From the NCBI GenBank assembly GCA_030390025.1, contig CM059431.1, positions 116,190,001 to 116,254,000 on the forward strand: a stretch of 64,000 nucleotides of DNA, given 5' to 3'. The stretch is from Squalus acanthias (lineage: Eukaryota). How positions within the stretch are numbered: position 1 is the stretch's first letter; each line of letters opens with the position of its first letter. The notes beneath the pieces are model-generated. The model had not been told where the DNA came from and searched no databases. It saw only the letters and a list, made by a program, of their open reading frames with translations. This document shows positions 6,351 through 51,823 of the stretch, piece after piece. Both the position numbers and the translations under genes were made by a program.

Positions 6351-6370
6351 AGTCAATGCTTATGTATAAT

Positions 6371-14587: not shown

Positions 14588-14624
14588 ATTAACATTTCAG
14601 GTCGATGACCTTTCCTCAGAAGTG
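14588..14624 (-). ncRNA. Minimal hammerhead ribozyme motif (degenerate)
   Basis: Reverse complement: actt-CTGAGGA-a-aggtc.atc.gacct-GAAA-tg-TT-aatt. Confidence 0.6.
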
Positions 14625-15274
14625 GAAAAAGTTGAAGATGTAAAAGGTTTTTAAGCGAGTGTAGGTGCAGGGAGAGGGGGGAGGGGAGGAAAGAACAAAA
14701 GGGAAGGTCTGTGAGAGGATGGAAGGCAGGAGAGATTAAGAGACAAAAAGGGATGATGGTGCAAGGCAAAAGGAGATGGTAATGGGACAAGTTAAGAAAC
14801 AAAAGATGACTCGAGATGAAGTGTAAATGGCATGGCAGGATGATCAACAGCTGCCATGTGAGAGAGAGGAGAAAATAAAATGATAGGGGCTGAGGTTATG
14901 GTCTGAAATTGTTGAACTCGATGTTGAGTCCAGAAGGCTGTAAAGTGCCTAATCGAAAGATGAGGTGCTGTTCCTCGAGTTTACATTGAGCTTCATTGGA
15001 ACAGTGTAGGAGGCCGAGGACAGAGACGTCAGAGTGGGAGTGGAGCGGAGAATTAAAGTGACAGGCGACCGGAAGCTCGGGGTCACCCTTATGGACTGAA
15101 CGGAGGTGTTCCGCAAAGCGGTCACCCAATCTGCGTTTGGTTTCCTCAATGTAGAGGAGACCGCATCATGAGCAGCGAATACAGTATACTAAAACGCAGA
15201 TTGGGTGACCGCTTTGCGGAACACCTCCATTCCCTACACTTGCTTAAAAACCTGTTCCTTCTCCAACTTTTTTC

Positions 15275-15311
15275 AGTTCTGACGAAAGGTCATCGACCTG
15301 AAACGTTAACT
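15275..15311 (+). ncRNA. Minimal type I hammerhead ribozyme motif
   Basis: agtt-CTGACGA-a-aggtc.atc.gacct-GAAA-cg-TT-aact: stems I and II pair, palindromic ACGT stem III. Confidence 0.82.
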
Positions 15312-16916
15312 TTGTTTCTCTCACTGCAGATGCTGCCTGACCTGCTGAGTGTTTCCAGCATTTTCTGTTTTTATTTCAGATTTCCAGCATCTGCAGTTTT
15401 TTGCTTTTGTAAAAATATTACAATACTTCAGGTAAATAAATGGCAGAAAATTGATGATGTAACAAGGAAAAATAATAGACGTGACCGATTAACCTTGCGT
15501 GCCTTGTTCTTTCCAGCCGTGAAAATTAAATTTGTGTCATTGGGATCTTAGTTGCTTCATTGAGAGACTCAATTTGATTACAACATACCTAGAGGCGTTT
15601 GTGTTATGAGCCATATTGTGAGACATTTTATGTGGTGCTTTGTTATAAAATAAATGCATTGTTCTTTATTTTTGCTACATTAGTGGAATTTTGTGCCTGT
15701 ATAAATTAGACAATTTAAACCAAATATTGATTCTATTCACACACACGCAACAGAAACAAACTTGAAGCGAATGTGCTTGTAATTTTCATCAAATCTAGAG
15801 TTTGTTCTTTTTTTCAAATAAATATCATCTACTGGTAGAATTTGGGATAAAAAAAGATGCATCCCCAAGATGCAGTGAATCATACACCACAGAAGGCGGC
15901 CGTTTGGTCTATCATGCGTGTGCCAATTATTCCCACACCCCCACTCTTTCCCCATAAGCCTGCAAATGTTTCCTTTTCAATTATATATCCAATTATCTTT
16001 TGAAAGTTACTATTGAATCTGCCTCCACCACACTGGAGTAATGGCAGGGTGGGACTTCTGGTCACTCCTTGGGCCGTGATTTTATCGGCACTGAGAGGGC
16101 GGGGTTGGAGGTGGGTCAAAGGGTAAAATCGTTTTGATTGACCTGCCTCCAAACAATTTTCCCAAGTGTTGGGTCCCCGATTTGCGCATGGACCTGGCAC
16201 CTAGCGGCGGGAAGAGGATTAACGCCAATTACCTGCCTATCAACGGGTAGTTGATAGTAGTTGACAGGCTATTTTTGAATTTTGCCACTTCTGCCTCGGG
16301 TTTTCCGATGTCCGGAGACCACGCCAGGTAAGTGTGGCGTGTTGTGAGTCTGCTGTAATGTTTCTGGATTGATGATAGCTGCAGAAGTGGTGTGAAGGAT
16401 CCAATGGTGAGTCTCCGAGGAAAGAAAATGTTGGGAAAATTATTTTTAATGCATTTACACATTTCTTCAGGTAATAAGTTTTGAAATCCATGTCCAGTGC
16501 CACCTCATTGGGAGAACCTCTCTCACCAGTGACAGATCCCTTCTGTCACCTCACCTGCAGCTGCCATCTATTCCAGCCTATGGAGGGAGTCATTGGAGAG
16601 CCTTGGTGCAAGAGCCCACCTTTGTACAGTGATTGTCAGTGTTTGCAGCAACTCAATGCTGTCAAATACTGAAAAATCAGCTGTAAAAAAAAAATTGTGC
16701 ATGGTCCCTTTAAGAAAACCGGCAGATGACGCGTCATCAAATTATCCGGCAAGCCCGCAGGGCGGGCTTAACAAGGCCAATCAATGTAAAACCACATCTG
16801 TGGGCTGGATGCAGTTGGGGGTGGGACTGAAAGCCGGAAACCGCCTGACCCGCACCCAACCCGCCTCCAATGAAAAAATCGCAGCCTTTGACTCCGCCCT
16901 GGACATGACCCATTTT

Positions 16917-17250
16917 CATAAAGAAAGAAAAGAATGACGTGCATTTATATAGCGTCTTTCATGACCTCAGGCCATCCCAAAGCACTTGATAGCCAATGAA
17001 GTACTTTTGAAGTGTAGTTACTGTTGTAATGTAGGAAACGCAGCAGCCAATTTGCGCACAGCAAGCTCCCACAAACAGCAATGTGATAATGATCAGTTAA
17101 TCTGTTTTAGTGATGTTGATTCAGGGATAAATATTGGCCAGGACACCAAGGATAACTCCCCTGCTCTTCTTTAAACTAGTGCCATGGGATCTTTTATGTC
17201 CACCTGAGAGGGTAGACAGGGCCTTGGTTTAACGTCTCATTCGAAAGATG
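16917..17250 (-). mobile_element. DeuSINE (SacSINE1-like), 5'-truncated
   Basis: Reverse complement of the SINE core and tail seen at 710-1012. Confidence 0.85.
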
Positions 17251-18180
17251 GGTAGGGATCATTTGGCATGTAGATTGGGCTCCTGGTGGGATTCCTGCAG
17301 TCAAGAGGGAGCATGCCAGTGCTGAAGAGGAAAATTAAGTTGGACCACCACTGTAGCACCAGAAAAGGCAGCAAGGAAAATTAAAGAGACAGTACAGCCC
17401 CAAAGCTGAAGTAATCTCCTGGCTTTCTGGGGCTTGGAAGAGACCAAGACCTACAAAGGTAAATGTATAGGGGCCAGATTGGAGGGAGAAGGAGCCCTTT
17501 TCCTCCATCTGCAAAATTCGCCACTTCCCCGCGGGTGCTGGATGGGAAAGGGGCAGTCAGTGATGGTCCTGGTGGGGGTGGGAGAAGGGAATTGAAACTT
17601 GGTGGGGAGGAGGCAGTAAAAGTCAACATTAAGTTGGACTAAAATCTATGGCTTAGAAATTCGTCTCGAGCGGTCAATGGAACTGAATATCAGGCACTGC
17701 GTATAATGGGCGGCCGATCCGAAACCACCCGTTCTGCACCACTGCCCGAGACAAACTCCTAGGCCGATATATCTATCTGTTTGCTTTGGAAACTTCCTGG
17801 TAGAGTGATGCAATGACCCATCTTCTATTGCCTGGGATGGCTGAGCAGTTAGCCATAATGGTAGCGCAACTGTATCATTTGGTGATGAGAAAGAAATTAT
17901 TGTTTCCAAAGCCGGCAGTGAATAATTCCATAAGGGCCCACCTTCAGGCGGCAGGCTCTCTTATGCAAATCAGGGTCCTATGATATACATAGAAGCCCGA
18001 TTACCATTTTAGGACTCAATTGAGCAGTGCCTATTCCGTGCACGCATCGCTCACTTCCACCTGAAGGAGAGCCCAGAAGGTAAGCTTCAATTTATTTTCG
18101 CAGGACCGTGCCCAAGAATGGGCCTCCCCACCCGCCTTCCACTTGTGGACCCACCTTTCTCCAAGTCCGGGGGGGGTGAT

Positions 18181-19571
18181 AGAACAGTACAGCACAGTAC
18201 AGGCCCTTCGGCCCTCGATGTTGTGCCGAGCATTGTCCGAAACCAAGATCAAGCTATCCCACTCCCTATCATTCTGGTGTGCTCCATGTGCTTATCCAAT
18301 AACCGCTTGAAAGTTCCTAAAGTGTCCGACTCCACTATCACAGCAGGCAGTCCATTCCACACCCCAACCACTCTCTGAGTAAAGAATCTACCTCGGACAT
18401 CCCTTCTATATCTCCCCCCATGCACCTTATGCCTCCTTGTAACAGCTACATCCACCTGAGGAAATAGTCTCTGAACATCCACTCTATCTATCCCCCTCAT
18501 CATCTTATAAACCTCTATTAAGTCGCCTCTCATCCTCCTCCGCTCTAAAGAGAAAAGCCCTAGCTCCCTCAATCTTTCCTCATAAGACCTCCCCCCCAAA
18601 CCAGACAGCATCCTGGTAAATCTCCTTTGCACTCTTTCCAATGCTTCCACGTCCTTCCTATAGTGAGGTGACCAGAACTGCACACAATATTCCAAATGTG
18701 GTCTCACCAAGGTCCTGTACAGTTGCAGCATAACCTCACGGTTCTTAAACTCAAACCCCTTGTTAATAAACGCTAACACACTATAGGCCTTCTTTACTGC
18801 TCTATCCACTTGAGTGGCAACCTTCAGAGATCTGTGGATATGAACCCCCAGATCCCTCTGTTCCTCCACGTTCCTCAGAACCCTGCCGTTGACCCTGTAA
18901 TCCTTATTCAAATTTGCCCTACCAAAATGAATCACCTCGCACTTATCAGGGTTAAATTCCATCTGCCATTTTTCGGCCCAACTCTGCATCCTATCAATGT
19001 CTCTTTGCAGCCTACAACAGCCCTCCACCTCATCCACTACTCCACCAATCTTGGTGTCATCAGCAAATTTACTGATCCACCCTTCAGTCCCCTCCTCCAA
19101 GTCATTGATAAAAATCACAAACAGCAGAGGACCCAGCACCGACCCCTGTGGCACACCGCTGCTAACTGGTCTCCAGTCCGAAAATTTTCCATCCACCACC
19201 ACCCTCTGCCTTCTATGAGATAGCCAGTTACTTATCCAATCAGCCAAATTTCCCTCTATCCCACAACTCCTTACTTTCTTCATGAGCCGACCATGGGTAA
19301 CCTTATCAAACGCCTTACTAAAATCCATGTATACAACATCAACTGCTCTACCATCATCTACACATTTAGTTACCTCCTCAAAGAATTCAATCAAATTTGT
19401 TAGGCAAGACTTACCCTTCACGAATCCGTGTTGACTATCCCGGATTAAGTTGCATCTTTCCAAATGGTCATAAATCCTATCCCTCAGGCCCTTTTCCATT
19501 ATCTTACCAACCACCGAAGTAAGACTAACCGGCCTATAATTACCAGGGTCATTCCTATTTCCTTTCTTGCA
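18181..19571 (-). mobile_element. Young 5'-truncated CR1 LINE
   Basis: Uninterrupted RT frame; GTGAT duplicated at 18176-18180 and 19572-19576. Confidence 0.93.
18249..19570 (-). CDS. CR1 ORF2 reverse transcriptase (partial)
   Basis: PGNYRPVSLTS, QHGF, YMDFSKAFDKV, GVPQGSVLGP, KFADD; the first ~19 aa of the listed ORF come from flanking DNA. Confidence 0.9.
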
Positions 19572-19814
19572 GTGATCTGGAGCCGGCGAGCTGCTCGGGG
19601 GTGCTCGTTTTCTGCACACAGCTCGCAAGCCCCAAATGAGGCCCAGCCACCCAAAAACTGTACGGGAGGAGATTCTACGCCATATTCCTGGGGATTATGG
19701 CCCCAATATTAATCTAAAGGCAGCTTCCTAGCAGGGGGGTGGAATTGCGTTGTGGAACATGGAAGTCAACTGAATGATTTGGAATCAGCGGTCTAAACTG
19801 CCTTCTGTTGCCTA

Positions 19815-20050
19815 GGCCCTAAGCTCTGGAATTCTCTGCTTAAATCTCTCCGCCTCGCTACCTCTCTCTCCTCCTTTAAAATGCTGCTTAAAACCTTCCT
19901 CTTTGACCAAGCATTTGGTCACTTGCCCTAATTTCTCCTTATGTGGCTCGGTGTCAATCTTTTGGTCTTTTAATACTCCTGTGAAGCAGCTTGGGACATT
20001 TTACTACATTAAAAGTGCTATATAAATACAAGTTGTTGTTGTTGTTGTTG
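19815..20050 (+). mobile_element. L2 3' UTR fragment with short (GTT)n tail
   Basis: Matches the reverse complement of 8971-9185. Confidence 0.8.
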
Positions 20051-22931: not shown

Positions 22932-23281
22932 TCTGCTAAGGGAAATAGGCCCTTCCTATCCACTCTATCTAGGCCCCTCATAATTTTATACACCTCAATT
23001 AAGTCTCCCCTCAGCCTCCTCTGTTCCAGAGAAAACAATCCCAGCCTATCCAATCTTTCCTCCTAGATAAAATTCTCCAGTCCTGGCAACATCCTCATAA
23101 ATCTCCTTTGTATCCTCTCTAGTGCAATCACATCTTTCCTGTAATGTGATGACCAGAACTGTACGCAGTACTCTAGCTGTGGCCTAACTAGTGTTTTATA
23201 CAGTCCAAGTATAACCTCCCTGCTCTTATATTTTAAGAAGTCGCACAACACCAGGTTATAGTCCAACAGATTTATTTAATT

Positions 23282-23320
23282 TTACAAGCTTTCGGAACAG
23301 TTCGCTCCTTCGTCAGGTAA
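23282..23320 (-). ncRNA. Minimal hammerhead ribozyme motif
   Basis: Exact reverse complement of 25589-25627. Confidence 0.82.
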
Positions 23321-23542
23321 GTTAGCAGTGAGAGAATCTCCCAGAATTCACAATTTAAACACAGACAAAATATATTCAAATCTTTCCTACATCAAAGAGC
23401 ACAGCCAAGACAATGAGATGTGTCCCAGGGGGTCCAACGTGTCAAACCACCTGCTGGCTGCATATCCTGTCAATCTGTGTAGGTTCTTGTGTTAGTCTTT
23501 TTAAAAAAAAAAACACCTGGGAAGACCGGCCATGATGTCAAG

Positions 23543-24758
23543 TCACGTTCTGTATCGTGACATGAACCCGATATCGCGATTGAGGCCATCCTCATGAGTG
23601 CGGAACTTGGCTATCAGTTTCTGCTCTATGATTTTGCGCTGTCGTGTATCTCGAAGGCCGCCTTGGAGAACGCTTACCCGCATATCCGAGGCTGAATGCC
23701 CCTGGCTGCTGAAGTGTTCCCCGACTGGGAGGCAACCCTCCTGCCTGGCGATTGTTGCGCGGTGTCCGTTCATACGTTGTCTCAGTGTCTGCATGGTCTC
23801 GCCGATGTACCATGCTCTGGAGCATCCTTTACTGCAACGTATCAGGTAGACAACGTTGGCCGAGTCACATGAGTATGTACCATGTACCTGGTGGGTAGTG
23901 TCCTCACGTGTGATGATGGTATCTGTGTCCATGATTTGGCATGTCTTGCAGAGGTTGCCGTGGCAGGGTTGTGTGGTGTCTTGGTTGCTGTTCTCCTGAA
24001 AGATGGGTAATCTGCTGCGAACGATGGTACTTTTGAGGTTAGGTGGCTGCTTGAAGGCGAGTAGTGGAGGCGTGGGGATGGCCTTAGCAAGGTGTTCGTC
24101 GTCATCGATGACATGTTGAAGGCTGCGAAGAACATGGCGTAGTTTTTCCGCTCCGGGGAAGTACTGGACGACGTAGGGTACTCTGTTGGTTGTGTCCCGT
24201 GTTCGTCTTCTGAGGAGGTCTATGCGGTTTTTCGCTGTGGCCCGTCGGAACTGTCGATCGACGAGTCGAGCGTCATATCCCGTTCTTACGAGGGCGTCTT
24301 TCAGTGTCCGTAGGTGTCCATCGCGTTCCTCCTCGTCTGAGCAGATCCTGTGTATTCGCAGGGCTTGTCCATAGGGGATGGCTTCTTTAACGTGGTTAGG
24401 GTGGAAGCTGGAGAAGTGGAGCATCGTGAGGTTGTCCGTGGGCTTGCGGTAGAGTGAAGTGCTGAGGCGTCCGTCTTTGATGGAGATTCGTGTGTCCAAG
24501 AATGAAACCGATTCTGAGGAGTAGTCCATGGTGAGTTTGATGGTGGGATGGAACCTGTTGATGCTATCGTGTAGTCCTTTCAGTGATCCTTCGCCGTGGG
24601 TCCAAAGGAAGAAGATGTCGTCGATGTATCTGGTGTACAGCGTTGGTTGGAGGTCCTGTGCAGCGAAGAAGTCTTGCTCGAACTTGTGCATGAAGATGTT
24701 GGCATATTGGGGTGCGAATTTGGTCCCCATGGCTGTTCCGTGTGTTTGGGTAAAAAAA
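23543..24758 (-). CDS. PLE RT (partial) + Zn knuckle + GIY-YIG endonuclease
   Basis: GTAMGTKFAP, YTRYIDDIF, FLDT, LYRKPT, CHGNLCKTC, VVYLIRC..WYIGET; no stops, 5'-truncated. Confidence 0.93.
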
Positions 24759-25366
24759 CGGAAAAACTACGCCATGTTCTTCGCAGCCTTCAACATGTCA
24801 TCGATGACGACGAACACCTTGCTAAGGCCATCCCCACGCCTCCACTACTCGCCTTCAAGCAGCCACCTAACCTCAAAAGTACCATCGTTCGCAGCAGATT
24901 ACCCATCTTTCAGGAGAACAGCAACCAAGACACCACACAACCCTGCCACGGCAACCTCTGCAAGACATGCCAAATCATGGACACAGATACCATCATCACA
25001 CGTGAGGACACTACCCACCAGGTACACGGTACATACTCATGTGACTCGGCCAACGTTGTCTACCTGATACGTTGCAGTAAAGGATGCTCCAGAGCATGGT
25101 ACATCGGCGAGACCATGCAGACACTGAGACAACGTATGAACGGACACCGCGCAACAATCGCCAGGCAGGAGGGTTGCCTCCCAGTCGGGGAACACTTCAG
25201 CAGCCAGGGGCATTCAGCCTCGGATATGCGGGTAAGCGTTCTCCAAGGCGGCCTTCGAGATACACGACAGCGCAAAATCATAGAGCAGAAACTGATAGCC
25301 AAGTTCCGCACTCATGAGGATGGCCTCAATCGCGATATCGGGTTCATGTCACGATACAGAACGTGA
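24759..25366 (+). CDS. Duplicated PLE Zn knuckle + GIY-YIG (partial)
   Basis: Protein identical to the C-terminus of 23543-24758. Confidence 0.85.
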
Positions 25367-25588
25367 CTTGACATCATGGCCGGTCTTCCCAGGTGTTTTT
25401 TTTTTTAAAAAGACTAACACAAGAACCTACACAGATTGACAGGATATGCAGCCAGCAGGTGGTTTGACACGTTGGACCCCCTGGGACACATCTAATTGTC
25501 TTGGCTGTGCTCTTTGATGTAGGAAAGATTTGAATATATTTTGTCTGTGTTTAAATTGTGAATTCTGGGAGATTCTCTCACTGCTAAC

Positions 25589-25627
25589 TTACCTGACGAA
25601 GGAGCGAACTGTTCCGAAAGCTTGTAA
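25589..25627 (+). ncRNA. Minimal type I hammerhead ribozyme motif
   Basis: ttac-CTGACGA-a-ggagc.gaact.gttcc-GAAA-gc-TT-gtaa. Confidence 0.82.
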
Positions 25628-26440
25628 AATTAAATAAATCTGTTGGACTATAACCTGGTGTTGTGCGACTTCTCATTTTTGTCCACCCCAGTCCAACGCC
25701 GGCATCTCCACATCATGACTTATATTTTAAGCCTCGGCTAATAAAGGAAAGCATCCTGTATGCCTTCTTAACCACCTTATCTACCTGTCCTGCTACCTTC
25801 AGGGATCTGTGGACATGCACTCCAAGGCCTTCTGTTCCTCTACACTTCTCAGTATCCTACCATTTATTGTGTATTCCCTTGCCTTGTTAGTCCTCCCCAA
25901 ATGCATTAAGTCACACTTCTCCGGATTGAACTCCATTTGTCACTTTTTTGCCCACTTGACCAGCCCATTGATATCTTCCTTCAGTCTACAGCTTTCTTCT
26001 TAACTATCGACCACACAGCCAATTTTTGTGTCATCTGGAAACTTTTTAATCATGCCCCCTACATTGAAGTCTAAATCATTGATATATACCACAAAAATCA
26101 AGAGACCTAGTTTGAGCCCTGCGGAATCCCACTGGAAACAACTTTCCAGTCACAAAAACCCCCGTCGACCATTACCCTTTGCTTCCTGCCACTGAGCCAA
26201 TTTTGGATCCAACTTGCCACTTTCTCTTGGATCCCATGGGCTTTTAGTTTTCAGACCAGTCTGCCATGAGGGATCTTGTCAAAAGCCTTGCTAAAATCCA
26301 TGTAGACTACATCAAACGCGCTACCCTCATCAACCCTCCTTGTTACCTCCTCAAAAAATTCAATCTGTTAGTCACGCACGACCTTCCCTTAACAAATCCA
26401 TGCTGACTGTCCTTGATTAATCCGTGTCTTTCTAAATGAT

Positions 26441-26905
26441 AGCCAAGTTCTAAACTGATAGCCAATGAGGACGGCCTCAACCGGGATCTTGGTTTCATGT
26501 CACACTACATGACGTAGAGTCATCCAGACTCGAGTCGTCGTTGTCTTGTTCACAGATGTGATTTCCAGTTTTAAAAAAAGTCAAAAGCTTAACTGCAGAC
26601 TGCAGCATTTGACACATTGGACCCCCAGTGACCCCACCTCATTGTCTTAGCTGTATTTTGCTGTGTCTTTGATGTAATGCCTTCCTGACTGATTGTATCT
26701 TTGCCGAGGTGTGATGGAGGGCAGTCAGAAACACATTGTTCTCTGTCTATATATGCTTTGCTGATTTATATTCCCTCACTTTACCTGACGAAGGAGCAGC
26801 GCTCCAAAAGCTCGTGATTTCAAATAAAACTGTTGGACTATAACCTGGTGTTGTGCGACTTCTCATTTTTGTCCACCCCAGTCCAACACCGGCATCTCCG
26901 CATCA
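26441..26905 (+). mobile_element. Penelope-like 3' fragment (family A relative)
   Basis: EDGLNRDLGFMSHY end, pLTR and tail; TSD TTTCTAAATGAT at 26429-26440 and 26906-26917. Confidence 0.88.
26781..26817 (+). ncRNA. Hammerhead motif with GAAA>AAAA core mutation
   Basis: ttac-CTGACGA-a-ggagc.agc.gctcc-AAAA-gc-TC-gtga. Confidence 0.65.
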
Positions 26906-27311: not shown

Positions 27312-29769
27312 TTTTTACATAGGATTACATAGGATATACAGCACAGAAACAGGCCATTCAGACCAACCAGTCCATGCCGGCGTTTATGCTCCACTTGAGC
27401 CTTCTTCCATCTTTCCTCAGCTAACCCAATCAGCATAACCCTCTATTCCCTTCTCCCTCATATGCTTATCTAACCGCCCCTTAAATGCTTCTATACTATT
27501 CACTTCAACCACTCTCTGCAGTAGTGAGTTCCACATTCTCACCATTCTCTGGGTAAAGAAGTTTCTTCTGAATTCCCTATTTCATTTCTTGGTGACTATC
27601 TTATATTGATGGCCTCTAGTTTTGCTCTTCCCCATAAGGGGAAACATTCTCTCTGTATCTACTCTATCAAAACCTCTCATGATTTTAAAGACAACTATTA
27701 AGTCACCCCTCAGCTTCTCTTTTTAAGAGAAAAGAGACCCAGCCTGTTCATCCTTTCCTGATAGGTATACCCTCGCATTTCTGGTATCATCCTTGTAAAT
27801 CTTCTCTGCACCCTCTCCAGTGCCTCTATATCCTTTTTATAATATGGCAACCAGAACTGTACGCGGTACTCCAAGTGTGGTCTAACCAACGTTCGATACA
27901 AGTTTAGCATAACTACTTTTCAATTCTATCTCTCTAGAAATAAACCCTAGTGCTTGGTTTGCTTTTTTTATGGCCTTGTTAACCTTATTTTTTAATTCGT
28001 TTTTTATGGGATGTGGGCGTCGCAGGCAAGGGCAGCATTTATTGCCCATCCCTAATTGCCCTTGAGAAGGTGGTGGTGAGCCGCCTTCTTGAACCACTGC
28101 AGTCCCTGTGGTGAAGGTTCTCCCACAGTGCTGTTACGTAAGGAGTTCCAGGATTTTGACCCAGCAACGATGAAGGATTGGCGATATACTTCTAAGTCAG
28201 GATGGTGTGCGACTTGGAGGGGAACTTGGAGGTGTTCCCATGCGCCTGCTGCCCTGGTCCTTCTAGGTGGAAGAGGTCGCGGGTTTGGGAGGTGCTGCCG
28301 AAGAAGCCTTGGCGAGTTGCAGTAGTGCATCTTGTAGATGGTACACACTGCAGCCACGGTACACCCGTGGTGGAGGGAGTGAATGTTTAAGGAGGTAGCT
28401 GGGGTGCCAATCAAGCAGGCTGCTTTGTCCTAGATGGTGTCAAGCTTCTTGAGTGTTGTTGGAGCTGCACTCATCTAGGCAAGTGGAGAGTATTCCATCA
28501 CACTCCTTACCTATGCCTTGTAGATGGTAGAAAGGCTTTGGGGAGTCAGGAGGTGAGACACTCACCGCAGAATACCTAGCCTCTGACCTGCTCTTGTTAC
28601 CACAGTATTTATGTGGATGGTCCAGTTAAGTTTCTGGTCAATGGTGACCCCCAGGATGTTGATGGTGGGGGATTCGGCGATGGTAATGCCATTGCCTGTC
28701 AAGGGGCGGTGTTTAGACTCTCGCTTGTTGGAGATAGTCATTGCCTGGCACTTTTGTGACGCGAATGTTACCTGTCACTTATCAGCCCAAGCCTAAACGT
28801 CGTTCAGGCTTGTTTCATGCGGGCAGGGATTGCTTCATTATCTGAGGAGTTGTGAACACTGTGCAGTCATCAGCAAACATCCCCATTTCTGACCTTATGT
28901 TGGAGGGAAGGTCATTGATGAAGCAGCTGAAGATGGTTGGGCCTAGGACACTGCCCTGAAGAACTCCTGCAGCGATGTCCTGGGGCTGTGATGATTGACC
29001 CTCAATCACCAGTGTCGCTACATTTAGTGATTTGTGTATTTGTACTCCAAAATCCCTTTGTTCCTCTACCCCATTTAGATTCTTACTTTCCAAGTAATAT
29101 GTGACCTCCTTATTTTTCTTACCAAAATGTAATACCTCACATTTATCTGTGTTGAAGTTCATTTGCCAATTATATGCCCATTCTGCAAGTTTATTAATGT
29201 CTTCTTGTAATTTGTTGCAGTCCTCCTCAGTATTAACTATCCCCCCCAATTTGATGTCGTCCGCAAATTTAGAAATTGTGTTTTTGATTCCAAAGTCTAA
29301 ATCGTTAATATAAATTGTGAACAACAGCGGTCCAGCACTGATCCTTCTGGAACAACACTTCCCACCTTCTGCCACTCTGAATAGTTACCCTTTACCCCTA
29401 CTCTCTGCTTTCTGTCTTGAAGCCAGCTAGCTATCCATTCTGCTACTTGTCCCCTGACTCTGCATTCCCTGACCTTATTCATTAGTCTATTATGTGGTAG
29501 CTTATTGAAGGCCTTTTGAAAATCTAGATAAATTACATTACCCTTGTCTACTCTCTCTGTTACCTCTTCAAAAAATTCAATTAGGTTGGTCAAGCAAGAC
29601 TTTCCCTTTTGAAATCTATGCTGACTATTTATTGTTATATTTTTGCTTTCTAGATATTCTTCCATTTTCTCCTTTCGTAGGGATTCCATTATTTTTCCAA
29701 CCACCGATGTCAAGCTGTCTGGTTTATAGTTCGCTGGACTTGTTCTATCTTCCTTCTTAAATGTAGGTA
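27312..29769 (-). mobile_element. CR1 (RT + 3' UTR) nested in CR1
   Basis: RT ORF pieces; 16-bp TSD TTTTTTGCCTTATCCT at 27296-27311 and 29770-29785. Confidence 0.88.
27987..29010 (-). mobile_element. 3' part of a different CR1-group LINE family, third nesting level
   Basis: AGVLQGSVLGPTIFSCFINDL..FADD; tail GGGCAATTAGGGATGGGCAATAAATG. Confidence 0.8.
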
Positions 29770-32297: not shown

Positions 32298-33480
32298 TTA
32301 TGTTTCACAATAGGTGAACCTTCGCGATATTAGAGTATCTCTGGCATCGCGGACAGCAGTGTCAGTGGCTGGTCTGGCAATGGGTGTCCCATCTTCTTCC
32401 TCCTCCTCCTCTTCCTGCTCTTCCTCCATTTTCTCCTCATCTGAAGATGAGTGATGAGCCTCTTCATCCTCCTCTGCCTGCAATCCTCCCTCCTGCTCAA
32501 TGTTGTGCAGGACACAGAACACCACTATGATTCTGGGCACCCTCGCTGGCGAGCACCGAAAAGTGCCTCCAGACCTAGCTAGGCACCTGAAGCGCATCTT
32601 CAACATTCCGATGGCTTGTTCGATGACAAACCTGGTGGTCATGTGGCTCTTGTTGCAGTGCTCCTGCACCTCATTGGTGGGGTTCCTCACAGGTTTCATG
32701 ACGAAAGTTTGAAGTTGGTATCGCTTGTCTCCTACGAGCCAGCCTTTAAGTCTGCTTCCTGGAACAAAAATGTCTGGAATATTGGGCTGCCGCAATATGA
32801 AGGCATCATGACAGCTCCCAGGGAATCTGGCACAGACCTTCTTGTGGTTGCACACCAGCTACGCATTGATGGACGAATATCACTTGCAGTTTATAAAAAC
32901 TCCTGATTGCTGTGGTGGTGCTCGGATTGCCGCGTGTGTACAGTTGATGGCACCCTGTACCTTTGGAAATCAAGCCAGAGAGGTGAATCCAAGTGCCCAC
33001 TCATTCTGGCTATTGTCGTCACAGGGGAAATTTACATAAATGTCGGCGCTGGCAAACAACCCACCATTATGCATTTATGTACAGCCAACTGGGAGATCCT
33101 GGATATATCGGCGGTAGCACTCTGGAAGGATCTGGAGGCAAATGATTTGAGGGCGGGAGTCACTTTCACAGTCACTGGTAATGAGTGGCCACCTGGTCCA
33201 GCAGAGAGCATGTCTTCTTCTAGGAGGCTGTAGATGTCTGCCGCCACTTGACATGACAATCTCAGCCCGCGGAATCACTGCTCTTCTGAGAGATCAAGGA
33301 AGCTGAGCCTCTGTCTGTAAATCCTGTGACGTGTGTAGTGCCTCCTGCGACCTCGGCCCCTCTACTATCCACCTCCCTCCTGAGCACGTGCTGATCCCAC
33401 CCCAGCACTTCATCGCTGCTATGCATGGTGATGCTCTTCCTCCTCTGATGTGCTATCAAACACATCCAACGTGACTTCCA
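32298..33480 (-). pseudogene. Harbinger DDE transposase (HARBI1-like), frameshifted
   Basis: LPVTVKVT, ARFPGSCHDAFILRQ, WLVGDKRY, RFVIEQAIGMLKMRFRCL, CVLHN, acidic tract. Confidence 0.88.
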
Positions 33481-42603: not shown

Positions 42604-42731
42604 ATAGTCTTCTTGAGAGGACAAGGAATAAAAAGCAGTTAGTGTAAAAAGAAAAGCAACCTAAAATAAAACTAGACAAAAAGATGGTTGAATGTAGCCA
42701 AATAATGGGAAAGTATTTTTTGCTTAAATTA

Positions 42732-44565: not shown

Positions 44566-45813
44566 ATGCTGTGTGAGGTAGTTTTGGCTACTGATCATAA
44601 CTTTGCAGGTACTTTGGTTTTTGACCTTCATAACTTTGATTGCCAAGAGACTATAGGGGCTGCACTGATTGGGGGCGTCGTCCTGCGCCACCAGAATCGG
44701 AGGACACAGAGACGCAGAGAGAGAGTGGCAATCATGGCCAGACGGAGGAGGGCCAACAGGCCTCTGTACAGGAGACCTTACCCTCCCAGGGTATATCGCC
44801 AACAATTCACATATATTAATATGTCTGAGGAGCAGTGTTTGTGAAGGCTGCGCTTCAGCAAGGAGGTAGTCACTGAGCTCTGCCACCTGCTGCAGCCAGA
44901 TCTGCAGCCTCAACTGAGGTCCAGGACGTCTCTGTCGGTGGCAGTGAAGATCACAGTGGCTCTTTACTTTTATGCCACTGGCTCATTTCAATCAGCTACT
45001 GGAGACATCGCCAATAACTCCCAGTTCGCGGTGCATTGCTGCATCCGTCAGGTCACAAATGCCCTCTTTAAAAGGAGACAAGAGTACATCTCTTTCCCCA
45101 TGACCCCAGACAAGCAGCAAGAACGCGCAATGGGCTTTGCTAGGATAGCGGGCTTCCCCATGGTGCAGGGCGCCATTGACTGCACGCATGTGGCTTTGCG
45201 TGCTCCGCATGAGAATGCCGAGGATTTCCGCAACAGAAAGGTGTTCCATTCCTTAAACGTTCAGTTGGTCTGTGACCACAGACAGCTGATACTCGCTGTC
45301 AATGCCCACTATCCTGGCAGCTGCCACGATGCATTCATCCTGCGCCAGACTACTGTGGCAGAACTTTTCCAGGCACCGCATCAGCCAGTTGGTTGGCTTC
45401 TCGGGGACAAGGGATATCCACTGAGCACCTGGCTGATGACACCGCTCCGTACGCCCAACACCCCTGCTGAGCTGCGGTACAACGAGAGCCATCAAGCTAC
45501 CAGGAACATCGTTGAGCACACAATCGGCGTGCTCAAGCAACGGTTCCGCTGTCTGGACCATTCTGGAGGAGCCCTGCAGTACTCGCCTGAGCGAGGTTCC
45601 CACTTCATAGTTGTGTGCTGCATGCTGCATAACCTGGCAATCCTCAGGACCCAGCCAATGCCACCAGGCCTTGGAGCACCACCAGAGGAGGAGGAGGAAG
45701 AGGAGGAGGAAGAGGAGGAGGATGATCATCAGCAGCACCAAGGCGGGAGGGAGGCCCACAATGTAGAAACTGGAAGGGCCGTCCGTCAACGGCTGATAGC
45801 AAGCCGCTTCTAG
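44566..45813 (+). pseudogene. Harbinger DDE transposase (HARBI1-like) with a single in-frame TGA at 44842-44844
   Basis: GAIDCTHV, GSCHDAFIL, WLLGDKGY, RNIVEHTIGVLKQRFRCL; ORFs 44566 and 44938 share a frame. Confidence 0.92.
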
Positions 45814-46413
45814 GCCCCTGCTGAGGAAATGGCTTCTGCCATTGAGAACAACATGAATGAAACCAACCCGCAACCCCTAAGCCGGCCAAGGCAGCAATGA
45901 TTCCAAAGACTAAACATGTACATTTTGAATACAAAAACTTTTTTATTTCACAAACTCTGTGTGTGTCATTTCCTCATGACAAACTAATAGAAAGAAACAC
46001 AAAAACACAGTCATTAACATAACTGGTTCTCATAACCTGGAGATAATGTTCAAAAGTTTGACCACGAACCTCGGCCTTTAATAAAAAAATGACCAACATT
46101 TTGTCACACCTCCTACTTTTTGCCCTTTGAGGGTGATCTCCTTCCCTTGCGCACTTCCCCCCCTTCCCACCCTACTGCTCCTCCATAATGGGACCTCAGT
46201 GGCTGCAGCAAGGCTGGTGGAAGGCTGCTGATTGTCAGAACCTGAGACTGCAGATGCCCTTGAAGGACGGCCTCAACCAGCTCTGGGCCTGGAGGGCCCG
46301 GCTGCAGACTGCACCAACTCTGCATGGGCGGCAGCAGTCTGGGCTACAGGCAGTGGCAAGTGCAGTGGAGAAGTGACAGTGGTGGCAGCAGGAATGCTGT
46401 CATCTTGAGAGAG

Positions 46414-46632
46414 TGATGCGGAGATGCCGGTGTTGGACTGGGGTGGACACAAATGAGAACTCGCACAACACCAGGTTATAGTCCAACAGTTTTATTTGAA
46501 ATTACGAGCTTTCGGAGCTCTGCTTCTTCTTCAGGTACAGGTACCTGTACCTGAAGAAGGAGCAGAGCTCTGAAAGCTCGTAATTTCAAATAAAACTGTT
46601 GGACTATAACCTGGTGTTGTGCGACTTCTCAT
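46414..46632. mobile_element. Miniature palindromic Penelope pLTR pair with two hammerhead motifs (46502-46538 -, 46547-46583 +)
   Basis: 180-bp palindrome 46453-46632 centred on GGTACC; TCATCTTGAGAGAG duplicated at 46400-46413 and 46629-46642. Confidence 0.9.
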
Positions 46633-47674
46633 CTTGAGAGAGGACAGCAACTCCCTGCTCGACCGACACACTGGCACTCCCACGGGGCAGCACTTCAGCA
46701 TCTGGAGCAATCTGCTGGAGCACAGATTGCTGGCCTGCCGGGGCGCGGTGAGAGCCCCGGGGAAATGTGTACGAACCATTGAGGATGGCAGCAGTTAGTG
46801 CTCGCGTGGCCTCAATCTGAGTCTGCAGGAGAGCTGTCAGAGATGGGTTCATGGCAGCCATTGACTGAATTGCAGCACTAAACATTTGCATGGCATCCGC
46901 CTGTGCTACAGCGAAGTGCTCCACACTCCTTGCCAGTGATTCAATGCATTAGGGCACCCTTCCCACTGCACCCATGAGCTCAGTGTGCATGTCCACCGCC
47001 TGGGTGTTCATTTCAGCGATGAGCCGCTCCTCCTCTGCGTCCAGTGCAGTAGGACTAGCTGGCATACTCTCCCTCCGGGGAGAAGGCCCCCGTGCTTCCC
47101 TACCCCCATGGCGTTGCTGCAGCCCACTGGGTCCTGGAGCTTCACCCTCATCAGACCCTTCCCCCCTGCTCCCCTCCAGGGAAGGCGTGTTCCCAGTGTG
47201 GGCATGGGCTTCCTCGGGAGAGGGTGGCGCTGATGCTCCGCCTTCATCTTCCTCCTCGGCTGCAGCTTCACTCCCACTGGCAGCTTGAGGGCCCGTCTCC
47301 TCAGCTGGTGAATCACCATCTGAAAGCAGGGAGGTACAAGAGTGGCTTTAGCGTGAGGACAGGGGGGCAGTAAGGGAGGAATGAGTGCAGTGATTTAGTA
47401 AGTTGGATTGAAAGTGTCAAAGGCTGGTGTTGTGAGGGACAAGTGGAAGGACAGAGGACAAAAAGGTGATGACCTTACCATTGCTGTCCAGAACGGGGTC
47501 GGCGTCTCCAGTGGCGACGGGACCGATCACCCGGCTTGCCACAATCCTGTGGATGCGCGCCTCAAGATTGCTGAGGGTTGCAGCTGAGGCCGCCCTCCAC
47601 CCGTCCGTTGCTGCTGTCTCCTATTATGAGATAGCTTGGCCTGCAAGAAAAATCACGGCGTCTGAGTAAATATA

Positions 47675-47784
47675 CAGCCATGGTCTTGCCTGATGTGCCT
47701 CCCATAGGTGAATAGCCCTTACTGTATGCAGCCATGGTCTTGCCTGATGTGCCTCCCATAGATGAATAGCCCTTACTGTATGCA
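47675..47784. repeat. 54-bp tandem duplication in Myb intron 1
   Basis: CAGCCATGGTCTTGCC...CTTACTGTATG twice, one mismatch. Confidence 0.92.
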
Positions 47785-50700
47785 AAGTGTGGAATGGGCG
47801 TGTGTGTTTCATGAGAGGGCCATAGGTGTTGGATGAGTGTTGTGCATTGGCGTTTTAAGACCTTCTGGCCATAGAGTGAGGTTGAGATGGAGGGATGGAG
47901 AGCTATTGAAAAAAAGCCACTCACCCTGACGATCCGAGTAAGGTCGTTGAACTTTTTTCGACATTGTATATGGGTCCTGGGCACCATGCTCCTGGAGGAG
48001 ACGCTCTGAGCCACCTCCCTCCACACTCTTCTGTACTCGCGCGGCAAAGGCCTCCTGCCACTCTCAGGGAAGAGTATAGATCTTCTGCGCTCCACTGCGC
48101 CAATCAGAGCATCCAAGGCCCGCTCGCTGAAGCGCTGAGCTCGTTCTCTCACCCTCTCCATAGTCCTTGGCTGGAAGATTTAGGCACAGGTCTCTCCAGG
48201 CTGAGATTCAAGGCTCTAATGAGCAGGGTGTGGCTGGAGTGCTAGATCAACCCTCCCCTTTAAGAACTGTCCAGCGCCAGTGTGTCTGTGTTCCATCGCT
48301 AACTGACATCACCTGCGCTGCGCCCTCGCTCTGAGTTAGCGCCTCGCTCCTCGGCCTTTGTGCCTTAAGACAGGTGTGTAGCGCCTGATTTAGCGCTCCA
48401 ATCACCTCCAGGGGTGATAAAAGTCAAGTTTGCAGTCGGAGGCGATAATTAACGCCAGGCGCCAATCTTTGCGCCCGGCCGATAATTGCGCCCCAAATGG
48501 GGCGATACTGAATTTCTCCCCCATGGAGGCAAAGGCGATAGTGCAAGATGGGCCATAAATTGGCTAAAGGACTGTAGGCAAGTAATAGTTTTTAGTAGGG
48601 TTGCTTCCCAGTGGTGTCTGGTTACTAGTGAGGCACCCCAGAGCTCAATGCTGGGTCCCATCCTATTTAGTAATGATGTGGAGGGGGAATAGAAATTATG
48701 GTTATTAAATTCATGGATGATACTAAATTGTGTTTAGAATCATGACCTAAAGAAGGAAATAGATTCCAACTGGCAGACTGGGGAAGTGGGCCCAAGAATG
48801 GCAAATGTCCTTCAATCTAGGTAAATGTGTGGTCATCCAGCTAGATGCGCAGAATTCGGGTAAAGAGTATAGAATGGGTGGCTGTAAGTTAAAGTTGACA
48901 TGAAGAGAGAGGGACTTGGCAGTGAACATTGACCATTCCCTAAAGATTCAAGCTCAGTATTATGAAACTGCAGCCAAAGTGAACAGAGTCGTGGCCTGTA
49001 TTGACCGTACAATTCAGTATAAAACTAGGGCTATGATTATGGAGCATTGTGTACCTTCTTTGTCTCCCCATCTCTAGAAGGGCATTTTGGCTCTAGAGAG
49101 CGTACAGAGAAGGGCAACGAGCGTGATCCTCCGCTGAAGTGTGTTGACCTATGGAGATAAACTTTGTGCCTTTGGGTTTTGATTCACTGGAGAGGTGTAG
49201 ACTTAAGGGGATCTGATTTAAATCTTTAAAATTATTAACGTCTTTGACAACATAAAAGTCAAAATATTGTTTGAGGTGATGGGGTTGGGTAGAACCACGG
49301 GCCATCCATTTAAGTTGAGAAAGCAGGGAATGGGAGTGGATGTGTGGAAGTTTTTTTTTTCTGGGAGTTATTAATCTGATAGCATTGCAGAGGTGGTAAT
49401 GTGGAATGACTTCTTGCAGTCTCTTTTGAAGGCATTATGTACTTTTTTTTTGAAAACTATGGGATCACAGCAGAAGGAACACAAGATTTTGTCTAATAAC
49501 CAGTAGACTTGGGCCTCCTGAGGCTTGCCGAATCAGGGAGGATTTTTTGATGGAGGTTTTCTCAATTGGCTATCAGTTTTTGTGTTTTTTTTACCTCTCC
49601 AAGGAGATGTTGCTGGTGGGCGGGAAGGAAGATTGAGGATGAGTCCATGAATAAGTGGAGCAAGTGTATATGGGCCTATTGGCCTTTTCTCACTCTGAGT
49701 ACGTAACATAAGGCCATCTGCACTGGCTGTTTGGAAAAGCTATTCAATTCGTCCATTTCTTTGCCCAGATATACTCTTTATTTTTTCCCATTTCAGTTTT
49801 AAAAGCTGTTTCCGATTCTGCATCTACTACTGTTACTAGTAGGGCATTTCATATCTTAACCTACTTCTGTGTCATTTTTTTTATCCTAATCTCTCCTTTC
49901 ATGCTTTTAGTGATGATCTTACAGTTATGCCCGTTGATTACCAATTTGCCAACCAGTGAAAATAGATTTACCAGACTCATCTTATCAAAGTCCCCAGTAA
50001 TTTTGCATATCTTTATCAGATCTCCTATCAACATTCTTTGTTGTAATGAAAACAGCCCCAGTTTCTCTTGTCTCCCTTCATAATTTAAGCCTTTAATCCC
50101 TGGTATCATCTTAATGAATCTCTTCTGCATCCTCTTCATAACATTAACATCCTTCCTAAAATAATGTACCCACAACTGGGCATAATATTCTAACTGTGGC
50201 CTAACCAGTGACTTGCTTTAATATTCCTTAGTACTCTATTCCTATAAAACCTAGGATCCCATGTTTCTTCTTCCGTTTTCTCTACTTCGCTTCTCACTTT
50301 TAAAGGTTTGTGTATCTGAATCACTAAGGTCGCGATTTCCCCTACCTCGGCGGGTCCGTGGCGGGTGACGTCGGTGGCAGGTCCTGACTCCACTGCTGGC
50401 TCCAGCCCACTGTCCAAAATGATTTTCCCCTGCTTGGGCTTGTTAAGCCCGCCCAGCGTGTTTGTCGGCCAATTGAAGGAAGCGGGTCTGATGAAATCAT
50501 TGGATGACAGGTTATCAGCCGGTTTCCTTAAAGGGACCATACGCAAATTGATTTTGACAGTTGTGCTGTCAGTGTTATACTGTAAACACTGACAAGCACT
50601 GCACAAAGGTGCATGGCTGCACCCAGCACACAGGGAGGTTCTCTTCCCTTCCAATGGGTGGAAGAGACCTCCCCAGGAGATCAACACAGCCTGGCTGCAC

Positions 50701-50785
50701 ATTGCTCAGGAGGGCACAAGTAGGGATGTCGTAAGAAGGAACAGGCTGTAGTGGCACAAACCTTTCAATTATCTCAGTAGATCAC

Positions 50786-51025
50786 GAGGGTGGTGAACCT
50801 GTGGAACTCATTGCCACAGAGGGCAGTGTACGCCAGCTCATTAAATATATTTAAGAGGGAATTAGATATATTTCTACAGGCAAAAGGGGTTAAGGGTTAC
50901 GGAGAGAAGGCGGGGACGGGATACTGAATTGGAGGATCAGCCATGATCTCATTAAATGGCGGAGCAGGCTCGAAGGGCCGGATGGCCTACTCCTGCTCCT
51001 ATCTTCTATGTATCTATGTATCTAT
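50786..51025 (+). mobile_element. CR1 3' fragment
   Basis: RVVNLWNSLP, GGCTCGAAGGGCC stem-loop, (TATCTATG)n tail. Confidence 0.85.
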
Positions 51026-51730
51026 GTTAGTACAAAGCCACACTCAACCTCATACTGCTGTGCCAATCATCACACCCCATCACTCTGCCTTCCCTGCCCT
51101 ACTCCTGCACATCCTTACTCACACCAACTTACCTTGCACCTCCACCCATCCCTCTCTATCAACATTATCACTTCCCCATCTCACTAGCCACCCCTAACAC
51201 TCACCCTCATCCTAGTGCAATCATACCAACTAACAACACACACGGGTAAGCACTTGTGTGGTTTGGCCAATGTTCATGTGAAGTTTCTGTTAATGTAGTG
51301 TCAAACATTGAAACCTTTATTTTCAACATTTTGTGTTCTTGGACAGATCTGTGTGCACCTTTGGAAGTAGCTTAGTGAGTTGCAGTGAATGGTGAGACAT
51401 AAGAGTACCCCCTGCAATGGTGATGAGTGTGAAAGGAATGGCTTGGGCATTGTAGTGATGCTTTATGGTGTTGATGTGGAGTGGTGTCAACCTGGTGCAT
51501 CATGTGGCAGCCAGGGTGTACAGCGTCAAGTGAAGTAAATCTGGCCATGGTGAGGCCATCCCTGGCCTCCCGGTCAGCAATGTGGTCGGGTGCTGATATC
51601 CTGTGTCCTGTGCAGCATCAGTTGATTGCAGAGAAGGTTGGTGTTGTTGGTGGTGCTGCTGGTGTTGGGGCTGATCGTGGTGGGATTCTGAGTACCAAGG
51701 TGAGATAGTTTCAAGGGCACCGATGCTGAT

Positions 51731-51823
51731 GCTAACTTACCTGACGAAGGAGCGAACTGCTTCGAAAGCTTGTAAAATTAAATAAATCTGTTGGACTATA
51801 ACCTGGTGTTGTGCGACTTCTCA
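51731..51823 (+). mobile_element. Solo pLTR fragment (family A) with hammerhead motif at 51737-51775
   Basis: Two differences from 25583-25675, both in stem II; ttac-CTGACGA-a-ggagc.gaact.gcttc-GAAA-gc-TT-gtaa. Confidence 0.88.

Follow-up and report, generated by a model that had tools for sequence, protein, structure and literature searches.

Minimal type-I hammerhead motifs in truncated Penelope-like elements of Squalus acanthias

Hammerhead motifs, open reading frame remnants and insertions in the window

The window analysed here is a stretch of 64,000 nucleotides of the Squalus acanthias genome (GCA_030390025.1, contig CM059431.1, positions 116,190,001 to 116,254,000 of the forward strand). 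A preliminary description, made from the sequence alone, had named eight minimal hammerhead motifs in it, and all eight are present at these sites. Counting the span of a motif from the 5′ strand of stem I through its 3′ strand, seven of the starts were right, while the motif 14588- was misplaced by one base. The motifs, which fall into families A, B1 and B2, are:

14587..14623, minus strand (14588-): family A minimal hammerhead, decayed; stem I with 3/4 pairs, helix III AUGU; predicted cut between 14591 and 14590
15275..15311, plus strand: minimal hammerhead of family A whose core is intact, the cut being predicted after 15307; stem I AGUU/AACU, stem II AGGUC/GACCU (A10.1-U11.1), palindromic ACGU in helix III
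23282..23320, minus strand: family B1 minimal hammerhead; same sequence as 25589+ and its inverted partner in the same insertion
25589..25627, plus strand: intact minimal hammerhead of family B1, the cut being predicted after 25623; stem I UUAC/GUAA, stem II GGAGC(G)/(U)GUUCC, helix III AGCU
26781..26817, plus strand: family B2 motif, core predicted dead because G12 is changed to A (AAAA); stem I UUAC/GUGA with a U.G pair
46502..46538, minus strand: family B2 motif that forms an inverted pair with 46547+; A.C mismatch in stem II (GAAGC/GCTCC), stem I with 3/4 pairs
46547..46583, plus strand: family B2 motif; stem I with 3/4 pairs, stem II GGAGC/GCTCT, 10.1-11.1 G.U, H17 = C; predicted cut after 46579
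51737..51775, plus strand: family B1 variant motif with intact core; stem II 3′ strand GCUUC

The CUGANGA core is retained in all eight motifs and the GAAA box in seven, the exception at 26781+ being the one already pointed out. The stem sequences given earlier were likewise found, although further variants at 14588-, 26781+, 46502- and 46547+ had been missed, and the cuts predicted after 25623 and 15307 agree with the standard hammerhead numbering. Every motif shows A15.1..U16.1-H17, with H17 being U in five and C in three cases, and an unpaired A between A9 and 10.1. The G10.1-C11.1 pair is found in five motifs and is replaced by G.U at 46547+ and by A-U in both family A motifs; C11.1 to U variants at this CpG are frequent genome-wide. 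Positions 15.2-16.2 are palindromic (GC or CG) in seven motifs and read UG at 14588-. Three of the eight are defective (A12 at 26781, the A.C mismatch at 46502, decay at 14588). The eight motifs are not independent of each other: they are repeat copies belonging to two families and five insertion events.

The origin of these repeats from Penelope-like elements (PLEs) of two families, as first suggested, is borne out by the agreement of open reading frame (ORF) remnants, protein relatives and a family A remnant. The remnants are:

14923..15192, minus strand: GIY-YIG remnant of family A, interrupted by a stop; shares 40.6% identity with P0001 along 96 aa and is flanked by 14588- and 15275+
23543..24766, minus strand: ORF remnant P0001, 407 aa, comprising the C-terminal part of the RT, a CX4CX2C linker and a GIY-YIG-type endonuclease; adjoins the pair 23282-/25589+
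24761..25363, plus strand: the inverted partner's ORF remnant, which is shorter; its 201 aa match residues 207-407 of P0001 at 100% identity

At E≤0.001, 317 relatives of P0001 were found, all among proteins 714-2035 aa long. The best of those listed mostly measure 715-950 aa and carry RVT_1 (PF00078), and some of the listed relatives, such as P0009 and P0022, carry GIY-YIG (PF01541). P0001 itself gave a weak RVT_1 match below the cut-off (E 2.7e-4), and its GIY-YIG-type motif was read by eye. A Pfam search with the EN fragment alone returned no family, and a PDB sequence search with P0001 nothing relevant.

Five insertions carry the motifs:

14527..15413, both strands: family A insertion, a 5′-truncated inverted pair with tails outward; 12-bp duplication AATATTACAATA at 14515 and 15414
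23238..25718, both strands: family B1 insertion consisting of an inverted pair, whose 915-nt arms show 100% identity; 13-bp duplication CTTATATTTTAAG at 23225 and 25719
26441..26905, plus strand: single 5′-truncated family B2 copy; 12-bp duplication TTTCTAAATGAT at 26429 and 26906
46414..46628, both strands: family B2 mini-palindrome, both copies truncated just upstream of the hammerhead; 14-bp duplication TCATCTTGAGAGAG at 46400 and 46629
51730..51825, plus strand: short family B1 copy that begins 7 nt before the hammerhead and has a short tail

All five are 5′-truncated and non-autonomous, and three are inverted pairs with tails outward. Target-site duplications of 12-14 bp flank four of them, three of these duplications being AT-rich; the copy at 51730..51825 shows no clear one. 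The motifs lie ∼220 nt after the GIY-YIG ORF remnant (223 nt past the ORF stop) and 44-94 nt short of the 3′ end of the copy. Two classes of 3′ ends occur, and the tails within inverted pairs differ in length (50 v 94, 56 v 92, 56 v 94, 58 v 93 and 44 v 86 nt); in the family B1 insertion, the tail past the cut is long (94 nt) in the right copy and short (50 nt) in the left. The window contains neither a tandem array of motifs nor interacting loops, and its only same-strand neighbors of the same family are 25589+ and 26781+, the latter with a core predicted to be dead. Across the window and the genome, several traits of EN+ PLEs are seen: 5′ truncation, partial tandems, an adjacent inverted 5′-truncated copy and an optional tail at one end (cf. 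PMC8557442).

Pairing of the stems and copies across the genome

A loose core pattern matched the window 11 times against a mean of 5.77 in shuffled sequences, a value reached by 5 of 100 shuffles and by itself not significant. The full descriptor requires stem I with at least 3/4 pairs, a fully paired stem II, GAA, A-NN-U with NN pairable, H and stem I, and it found six sites in the window versus none in 200 dinucleotide shuffles. In the hammerhead search that had been proposed as a check, the strict descriptor matched six of the eight motifs. The Rfam hammerhead models matched none in the window at gathering score and were absent from the 21 matches at E≤10. The missing Rfam match is expected because helix III is absent, but we still count it as a failed test. 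A covariance model built from the eight motifs revealed no additional copy in the window, with the next-best hit at 20.2 bits compared to 53.6-58.9 bits for the eight.

Structure-preserving variation, originally noticed among the window copies, extends to copies elsewhere in the genome. In 30 distinct sequences drawn from 355,646 bases of genome, 96.6% of the cells of stems I and II are paired and 9/9 pairs show two-sided change, a result that leans towards structure because the alignment was fitted to the model and the hits were picked by a model that rewards pairing. None of 500 shuffles reached this score, slid controls were 20-44% paired, and in the window motifs alone 93.7% of the cells pair. 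Helix III has no stable form in a single molecule, where it consists only of A15.1-U16.1 around two bases; two copies are needed to build it. In the predicted B1 homodimer, both stem II hairpins persist alongside an intermolecular AAGCUU helix, at –18.5 kcal/mol compared to –14.8 kcal/mol for two monomers. PLE hammerhead dimers have reportedly been the subject of a study by Lunse, Weinberg and Breaker. The suggestion that a palindromic mini stem III points to action as dimers agrees with the published view (PMC4209133; PMC6765202).

In an arbitrary 200-kb sample of the genome, the motif occurs at a density of ∼70 per Mb, so the window is not special for its motif content. Family B1 is abundant and young: the 40-mer of its hammerhead and tail has 10,767 exact genomic copies, the motif sequence of 25589+ recurs unchanged in 45 of 80 genomic hits, and the first 300 nt of the ORF are 100% identical in all 40 scored B1 copies. 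Inverted pairs are common as well: at least 14 of 29 seeded loci show this arrangement, as do 10 out of 14 strong hits from the arbitrary sample; among the first 100 genome sites, 28 pairs have the orientation -/+ and none the orientation +/-. Tandem copies elsewhere in the genome place the motif 126 nt and the predicted cut 92 nt upstream of the ATG of the ORF. The long tail ends at this ATG, and same-strand motifs are 3,046 nt apart.

5′ boundaries of family B1 copies

The 5′ boundaries of family B1 copies pile up at G1.1, the first base past the predicted cut. Counting by eye and taking all copies that start at G1.1 together, be they tail-only or full length, ∼84 of 100 listed rows (109 in all) are junction-like at this base, and ∼78 of 100 at the next one. 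At the control positions, junction-like rows amount to ∼2 of 8 at –23, 16 of 16 at –4, ∼10 of 100 listed (124 in all) at –8 and ∼8 of 100 listed (433 in all) at +8, and the 27 rows at –41 contain mostly palindromic junctions. This accumulation may be the genomic footprint of cleavage in vivo, left by a very young and probably active PLE whose 3′ fragments are reverse transcribed into tail-only insertions and mini-palindromes, a tentative reading to which we give somewhat less than even chances. Among the papers listed for the PLE hammerhead cleavage site and truncated copies, none, judged from titles and abstracts, deals with a pile-up of 5′ junctions.

Two other observations were followed up and set aside. 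Hammerhead variants with H17=A were considered as a source of A-preceded tails and rejected, since GCT precedes the A in only one genomic match. A 10- to 50-fold step in depth at ∼25625-25632 is seen in X1, X2 and X15, which are contigs of uncertain kind and unable to show RNA ends. The step stems from other subfamilies, which have the tail in common but not the hammerhead stems; the loose ends at 25632 read as 3′ halves of other hammerheads. X20, the sole run of raw RNA reads, gave none here.

Proposed mechanism, known systems and competing explanations

Our best explanation, to which we assign a probability of roughly 85%, is that the motifs are minimal type-I hammerheads of PLE pseudo-LTRs, present in the window as relic copies from five insertions of two families and belonging to elements whose RNA is presumably cleaved as dimers. 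The motif lies in the pseudo-LTR, the spacer between successive PLE ORFs. In multi-unit or read-through transcripts of a master copy, two hammerheads would pair via their palindromic AGCU or ACGU to a 4-bp helix III and cut after H17, probably aided by the element's own protein. For family B1, the cut would free an RNA with its 5′ end 92 nt upstream of the ORF start. Reverse transcription would have two alternative internal start sites past the cut, which would account for the motif and the tail of 44-58 or ∼93 nt in each insertion. Inverted pairs with tails outward are to be expected where reverse transcription is primed from both strands of an AT-rich target. The window copies are relics, and any cleavage of host transcripts crossing them would be a by-product. 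At inverted pairs such cleavage is unlikely because long hairpins would form instead, the antisense copy sequestering the sense motif.

The motifs are an ordinary ribozyme class of PLE copies, very common in this genome and described in 2014 as the minimal hammerheads of metazoan PLEs (Cervera and de la Pena 2014; PMC4209133). Both sets share the type-I topology, a full catalytic core without a real helix III, palindromic positions 15.2-16.2, an unpaired base separating A9 from 10.1, a helix I of 4 bp that lacks loop 1, and the absence of loop-loop contacts. They also agree in their pseudo-LTR location, in the abundance of single copies derived from truncated elements, in opposite-strand pairs spaced 100-700 bp apart and in consensus families rich in compensatory changes (PMC4209133). 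In contrast, helix II has 5-6 bp here but 7-8 bp in the Schistosoma families, the usual G10.1-C11.1 is replaced by A10.1-U11.1 in family A, and the host is a 3.7-Gb vertebrate genome, in which the copy number of a single subfamily's 40-mer (10,767) is far above the ∼4,000-9,000 of coelacanth and Xenopus (PMC4209133). A literature search combining shark, Penelope-like and hammerhead returned one review, in which "shark" denotes only a shape. Our results add two PLE families of one vertebrate genome to this class, and the accumulation of 5′ ends at the predicted cut is a new lead.

Poseidon of Anolis carolinensis (PAc) resembles the elements described here in having the hammerhead at the pLTR-ORF junction and in starting reverse transcription internally, within an AC-rich stretch past the cut; two start sites there make a tail of ∼40 nt optional (30-40 bp between the two start sites; PMC11167929). 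Its targets are AT-rich, and both DNA strands are cut and extended, fitting inverted pairs with tails outward. The PAc ORF, however, starts at stem II and is cut 26 nt inside (PMC11167929), whereas the family B1 cut lies upstream of the ATG. Features in common with published PLE minimal hammerheads (PMC4209133, PMC8557442, PMC11167929) are the core, the unpaired base after A9, the palindrome of the mini helix III, the pairing of inverted copies and the optional tail of ∼40 nt. The canonical type-I hammerheads of animal retrozymes, newt satellite 2 and Schistosoma Sm-alpha have the same topology, act as dimers and possess an unstable helix III whose loop is palindromic, but differ by a 6-bp helix I, a 4-bp helix II, interacting loops and short tandem arrays giving circular RNAs (PMC7229834, PMC6155905); a common origin with PLE pLTRs is considered likely (bioRxiv 10.64898/2026.07.22.740005). 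HDV-like ribozymes at the 5′ end of R2 and L1Tc are comparable self-cleaving RNAs that trim a retroelement from a co-transcript and set its 5′ end, although their fold is unrelated and their cleavage role has been demonstrated experimentally (PMC6765202).

The role of PLE hammerheads in vivo is called unclear (PMC8557442, PMC11167929), and a family as abundant, nearly identical and apparently recent as B1 is suited to direct tests of it. The strongest competitor of the cleavage model, in our view unlikely, holds that the motif is kept as a structured recognition or assembly element for RT/EN near the RT start, with cleavage weak, incidental or absent in vivo. Such motifs have low activity in vitro, even as dimers (PMC4209133). 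A further point against the cleavage model is that PLE clades without hammerheads proliferate well (PMC8557442). According to PMC11167929, catalytic mutants of the PAc hammerhead left insertion in vitro unchanged, the main PAc substrate is the unprocessed RNA, and no RNA-seq ends were found at the cut site. The uncut motif and tail are also retained in every window insertion; the 3′ hammerhead of the template was therefore uncut before reverse transcription. Nevertheless, the invariant positions are exactly those of the catalytic core, whereas the stems covary, and the PAc motif cleaves with protein present, the C3G/G8C rescue being ribozyme-like (PMC11167929). Together with the accumulation of B1 5′ ends at G1.1, this argues against the recognition-element reading.

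For the head-to-head pairs, we also considered that the relevant RNA is not a ribozyme but a long hairpin serving as small-RNA substrate or miRNA-like precursor, which we regard as improbable. A transcript of 46453-46632 is predicted to form a near-perfect 88-bp hairpin (–157.6 kcal/mol), and the 915-nt arms at 23236-25673, which carry 23282- and 25589+, are 100% complementary. Within the former, 46497-46588 resembles three Rfam families, namely mir-1597 (48 bits, E 1.1e-06), mir-3121 and mir-1805, and none of these matches reaches the gathering score. A literature search found no paper linking any of the three with Penelope. Against the hairpin reading, the Rfam scores are only about half of the gathering scores, and such pairs are a by-product of PLE integration (PMC8557442). 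Finally, the idea that the eight sites fit a short, degenerate descriptor by chance, with which the loose core pattern and the missing Rfam hammerhead match would be compatible, is refuted by the shuffles with the full descriptor, the same place of all eight in PLE copies, the covariation and the number of exact B1 copies.

Penelope-like insertions behind the eight motifs

The eight minimal hammerhead ribozyme motifs in the window trace back to five insertions from two families of Penelope-like elements (PLEs), not to eight independent events.

PLE insertions in the window
14527-15413, family A (motifs 14588-, 15275+): inverted pair; target-site duplication 12 bp
23238-25718, family B1 (motifs 23282-, 25589+): inverted pair, 915-nt arms 100% identical; target-site duplication 13 bp
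26441-26905, family B2 (motif 26781+): single copy; target-site duplication 12 bp
46414-46628, family B2 (motifs 46502-, 46547+): mini-palindrome; target-site duplication 14 bp
51730-51825, family B1 (motif 51737+): short copy; no clear target-site duplication

The assignment to two PLE families, made in the preliminary description, fits the ORF remnants found by the B1 pair and in family A. P0001, a 407-aa remnant adjoining the B1 pair (23543-24766, minus strand), combines a reverse transcriptase C-terminus with a CX4CX2C linker and a motif of the GIY-YIG type. Among proteins 714-2035 aa long, 317 are related to it at E<=0.001; the best of those listed, mostly 715-950 aa long, contain RVT_1 and in some cases GIY-YIG, and their hosts include turtles, ticks, an echinoderm and amphioxus. 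Family A retains a decayed GIY-YIG remnant with 40.6% identity to P0001 over 96 aa. In all copies, the hammerhead lies ∼220 nt past the ORF stop and 44-94 nt short of the 3′ end. Two other RVT_1 ORFs of the window, 18249-19694(-) (E 6.7e-36) and 28815-29384(-) (E 3.2e-19), belong to other retroelements and not to hammerhead-bearing copies.

The tails, that is, the stretches from the predicted cut to the 3′ end of a copy, face outward in the inverted pairs, each of which combines one long and one short tail: 94 versus 50 and 92 versus 56 nt in the window, and 94 versus 56, 93 versus 58 and 86 versus 44 nt in an arbitrary sample of the same genome. This gap of ∼36-44 nt fits the optional PLE tail of 30-40 bp described in PMC11167929 and PMC8557442. 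For the anole element PAc, PMC11167929 describes the optional tail as the stretch between two internal reverse-transcription start sites in an AC-rich region. The PAc protein is described as cutting and extending the two DNA strands at AT-rich sites, in line with the tails-outward pairs and AT-rich duplications seen here. Four other loci of the genome (L016, L019, L020 and L029) carry a tandem form, in which the long tail continues directly into an open frame and the tail region ends with the ATG of that frame. The predicted B1 cut therefore precedes the ORF start by 92 nt; that of PAc is placed 26 nt inside the ORF (PMC11167929). Elsewhere in the genome, two same-strand motifs are spaced 3,046 nt apart.

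Motif architecture and covariation

All eight motifs were located where they had been reported, except that the coordinate of 14588- is off by one base (true span 14587-14623, minus strand). Once aligned, they share a 4-nt stem I 5′ strand, CUGANGA, one unpaired A and a stem II hairpin (5-6 bp, 3-nt loop), followed by GAA, A15.1, two bases, U16.1, H17 (the base before the predicted cut) and the stem I 3′ strand. The core had been described as conserved, which holds for CUGANGA in all eight motifs and for GAAA in seven; 26781+ indeed reads AAAA, as previously noted. Likewise, the proposed palindromic stem III (GC or CG between A15.1 and U16.1) is present in seven motifs but not in 14588- (UG). 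Stem I is completely paired in five motifs and at three of four positions in 14588-, 46502- and 46547+, while stem II, counting G.U as a pair, is complete in all motifs but 46502-, which has an A.C mismatch.

A loose core pattern did not exceed chance in the window (11 matches against a shuffle mean of 5.77, with at least 11 in 5 of 100 shuffles). The full descriptor recovered six of the eight motifs and gave no match in 200 dinucleotide shuffles. Rfam hammerhead models matched nothing in the window, neither at gathering score nor at E<=10, a failed test that was nevertheless expected because the motifs lack helix III. A covariance model derived from these eight motifs found no additional copy in the window, its seven other matches scoring at most 20.2 bits.

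Among the eight motifs, 93.7% of cells pair, and all two-sided changes separate family A from family B. The claim of structure-preserving variation is borne out by a wider alignment of 80 matches, 30 of them distinct, drawn from the window plus 49 loci, with 96.6% of cells paired and two-sided changes at 9/9 pairs, albeit in an alignment fitted to the model, which favours selection of paired sequences. Its covariation score was reached by none of 500 shuffles, and slid partners pair in 20-44%. Compensatory changes within families include UUAC/GUAA versus UCAC/GUGA in stem I, and GGAGC/GCUCC versus GGAGU/ACUCC and AGGUC/GACCU versus GAGUC/GACUC in stem II. Genome-wide, 124 B1-type copies carry a non-C at 11.1, nearly all by C to T (C11.1-G12 is a CpG), resulting in G10.1.U11.1; stem II 3′ strand variants include ACUGUUCC, ACUGCUCC, ACAGCUCC and ACCGCUCC.

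Abundance, age and 5′ boundaries of B1 copies

PLE minimal hammerheads are extremely common in the 3.71 Gb genome of Squalus acanthias. A covariance model search of the arbitrary sample (200 kb at fixed coordinates, 20 contigs) gave 15 matches at E<=1, 14 of them below 1e-5 (∼70 per Mb); the window contains 125 per Mb. A B1 40-mer covering the hammerhead 3′ half and tail start occurs exactly 10,767 times in the genome, and among the first 100 sites listed, 56 form 28 -/+ pairs within 2.4 kb, with no +/- pair. With a 161-nt query around the B1 motif, all 40 scored matches show 100% identity over 159-161 nt, and three additional partial ones 98-100%. The first 300 nt of the B1 ORF likewise gave 40 scored matches, each of them 100% identical, which indicates that family B1 is very young. 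The eight motifs represent two additional PLE families that carry minimal hammerheads, a kind already known; only the youth of B1 and the pile-up of its 5′ junctions are worth pursuing.

Boundaries were counted by exact whole-genome patterns, in which the base before the chosen B1 start must differ from that of the element. The listed rows were sorted by eye into junction-like ones (unrelated upstream sequence) and point-mutated copies.

Genome matches by B1 start position relative to the predicted cut
-41: 27 in total; mostly palindromic pair junctions
-23: 8 in total; junction-like 2/8
-8: 124 in total; junction-like ∼10 of 100 listed
-4: 16 in total; junction-like 16/16
0 (G1.1, first base after the cut): 109 in total; junction-like ∼84 of 100 listed, T-preceded junctions being concealed by design
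+1: 100 in total; junction-like ∼78/100
+8: 433 in total; junction-like ∼8 of 100 listed, rows mostly from other subfamilies

Judged by the junction-like rows, inserted-copy boundaries peak at the predicted cut, as would be produced by cleaved RNA reverse transcribed to its 5′ end. At position 0, where a shorter pattern has 117 genome matches, the upstream sequence of most junctions is AT-rich, and the non-junction rows among the 100 listed are hammerheads point-mutated at H17. Transcription starting at G1.1 is a possible alternative source of the same peak. The AT-rich run from +1, which could favour microhomology joins, confounds the +1 and +8 counts; it accounts less well for the peak at the G. 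H17=A variants were rejected as the source of A-preceded tails, since GCT precedes the A in only one genomic match.

Predicted dimers, hairpins and neighbouring features

In published accounts, PLE minimal hammerheads cut as dimers via a palindromic helix III and show low activity in vitro (PMC4209133; PMC6765202); the PAc hammerhead is described as cleaving only in the presence of the element's protein (PMC11167929). The B1 homodimer is predicted to retain both stem II hairpins and to add an intermolecular AAGCUU helix (-18.5 versus -14.8 kcal/mol for two monomers). In such a double-hammerhead topology, each core would cut the site of its partner. Within the window, 25589+ and 26781+ alone are neighbours on the same strand; since the core of 26781 is predicted to be dead, they would at best allow one cut, after 26813, provided that partner-site cutting holds. 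Transcripts over the inverted pairs would instead form long hairpins, with a predicted fold of -157.6 kcal/mol for 46453-46632.

The head-to-head hammerhead/tail palindrome at 46497-46588 matches, on both strands, Rfam mir-1597 (48 bits, E 1.1e-06), mir-3121 (43.4 bits) and mir-1805, all at about half of the gathering score. Because the shared letters are the hammerhead 3′ half and tail start, these families may derive from PLE palindromes of this kind; a literature search found no published link of any of the three to Penelope. The B1 tail after the cut is common to many subfamilies and species, with differing stems. At 25625-25723, its summed depth in contig sets of several organisms (A, B, F) is 10-50x that of the hammerhead.

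Apparent PIF/Harbinger-type DNA transposon remnants are the ORFs at 44845-45813(+), 32298-32858(-) and 47562-48179(-), in which DDE_Tnp_4 (E 1e-39, 2.6e-18) and a domain of the Myb/SANT-like DNA-binding type (E 8e-10) were matched. A tandem array spaced at 15 and 9 nt, with several open frames, occupies 8182-9000. Direct repeats of ∼690 nt (6418-7105 and 12666-13345; 89-96% identity, 6.25 kb apart) contain the short palindrome GTACGCAGTGCGTAC.
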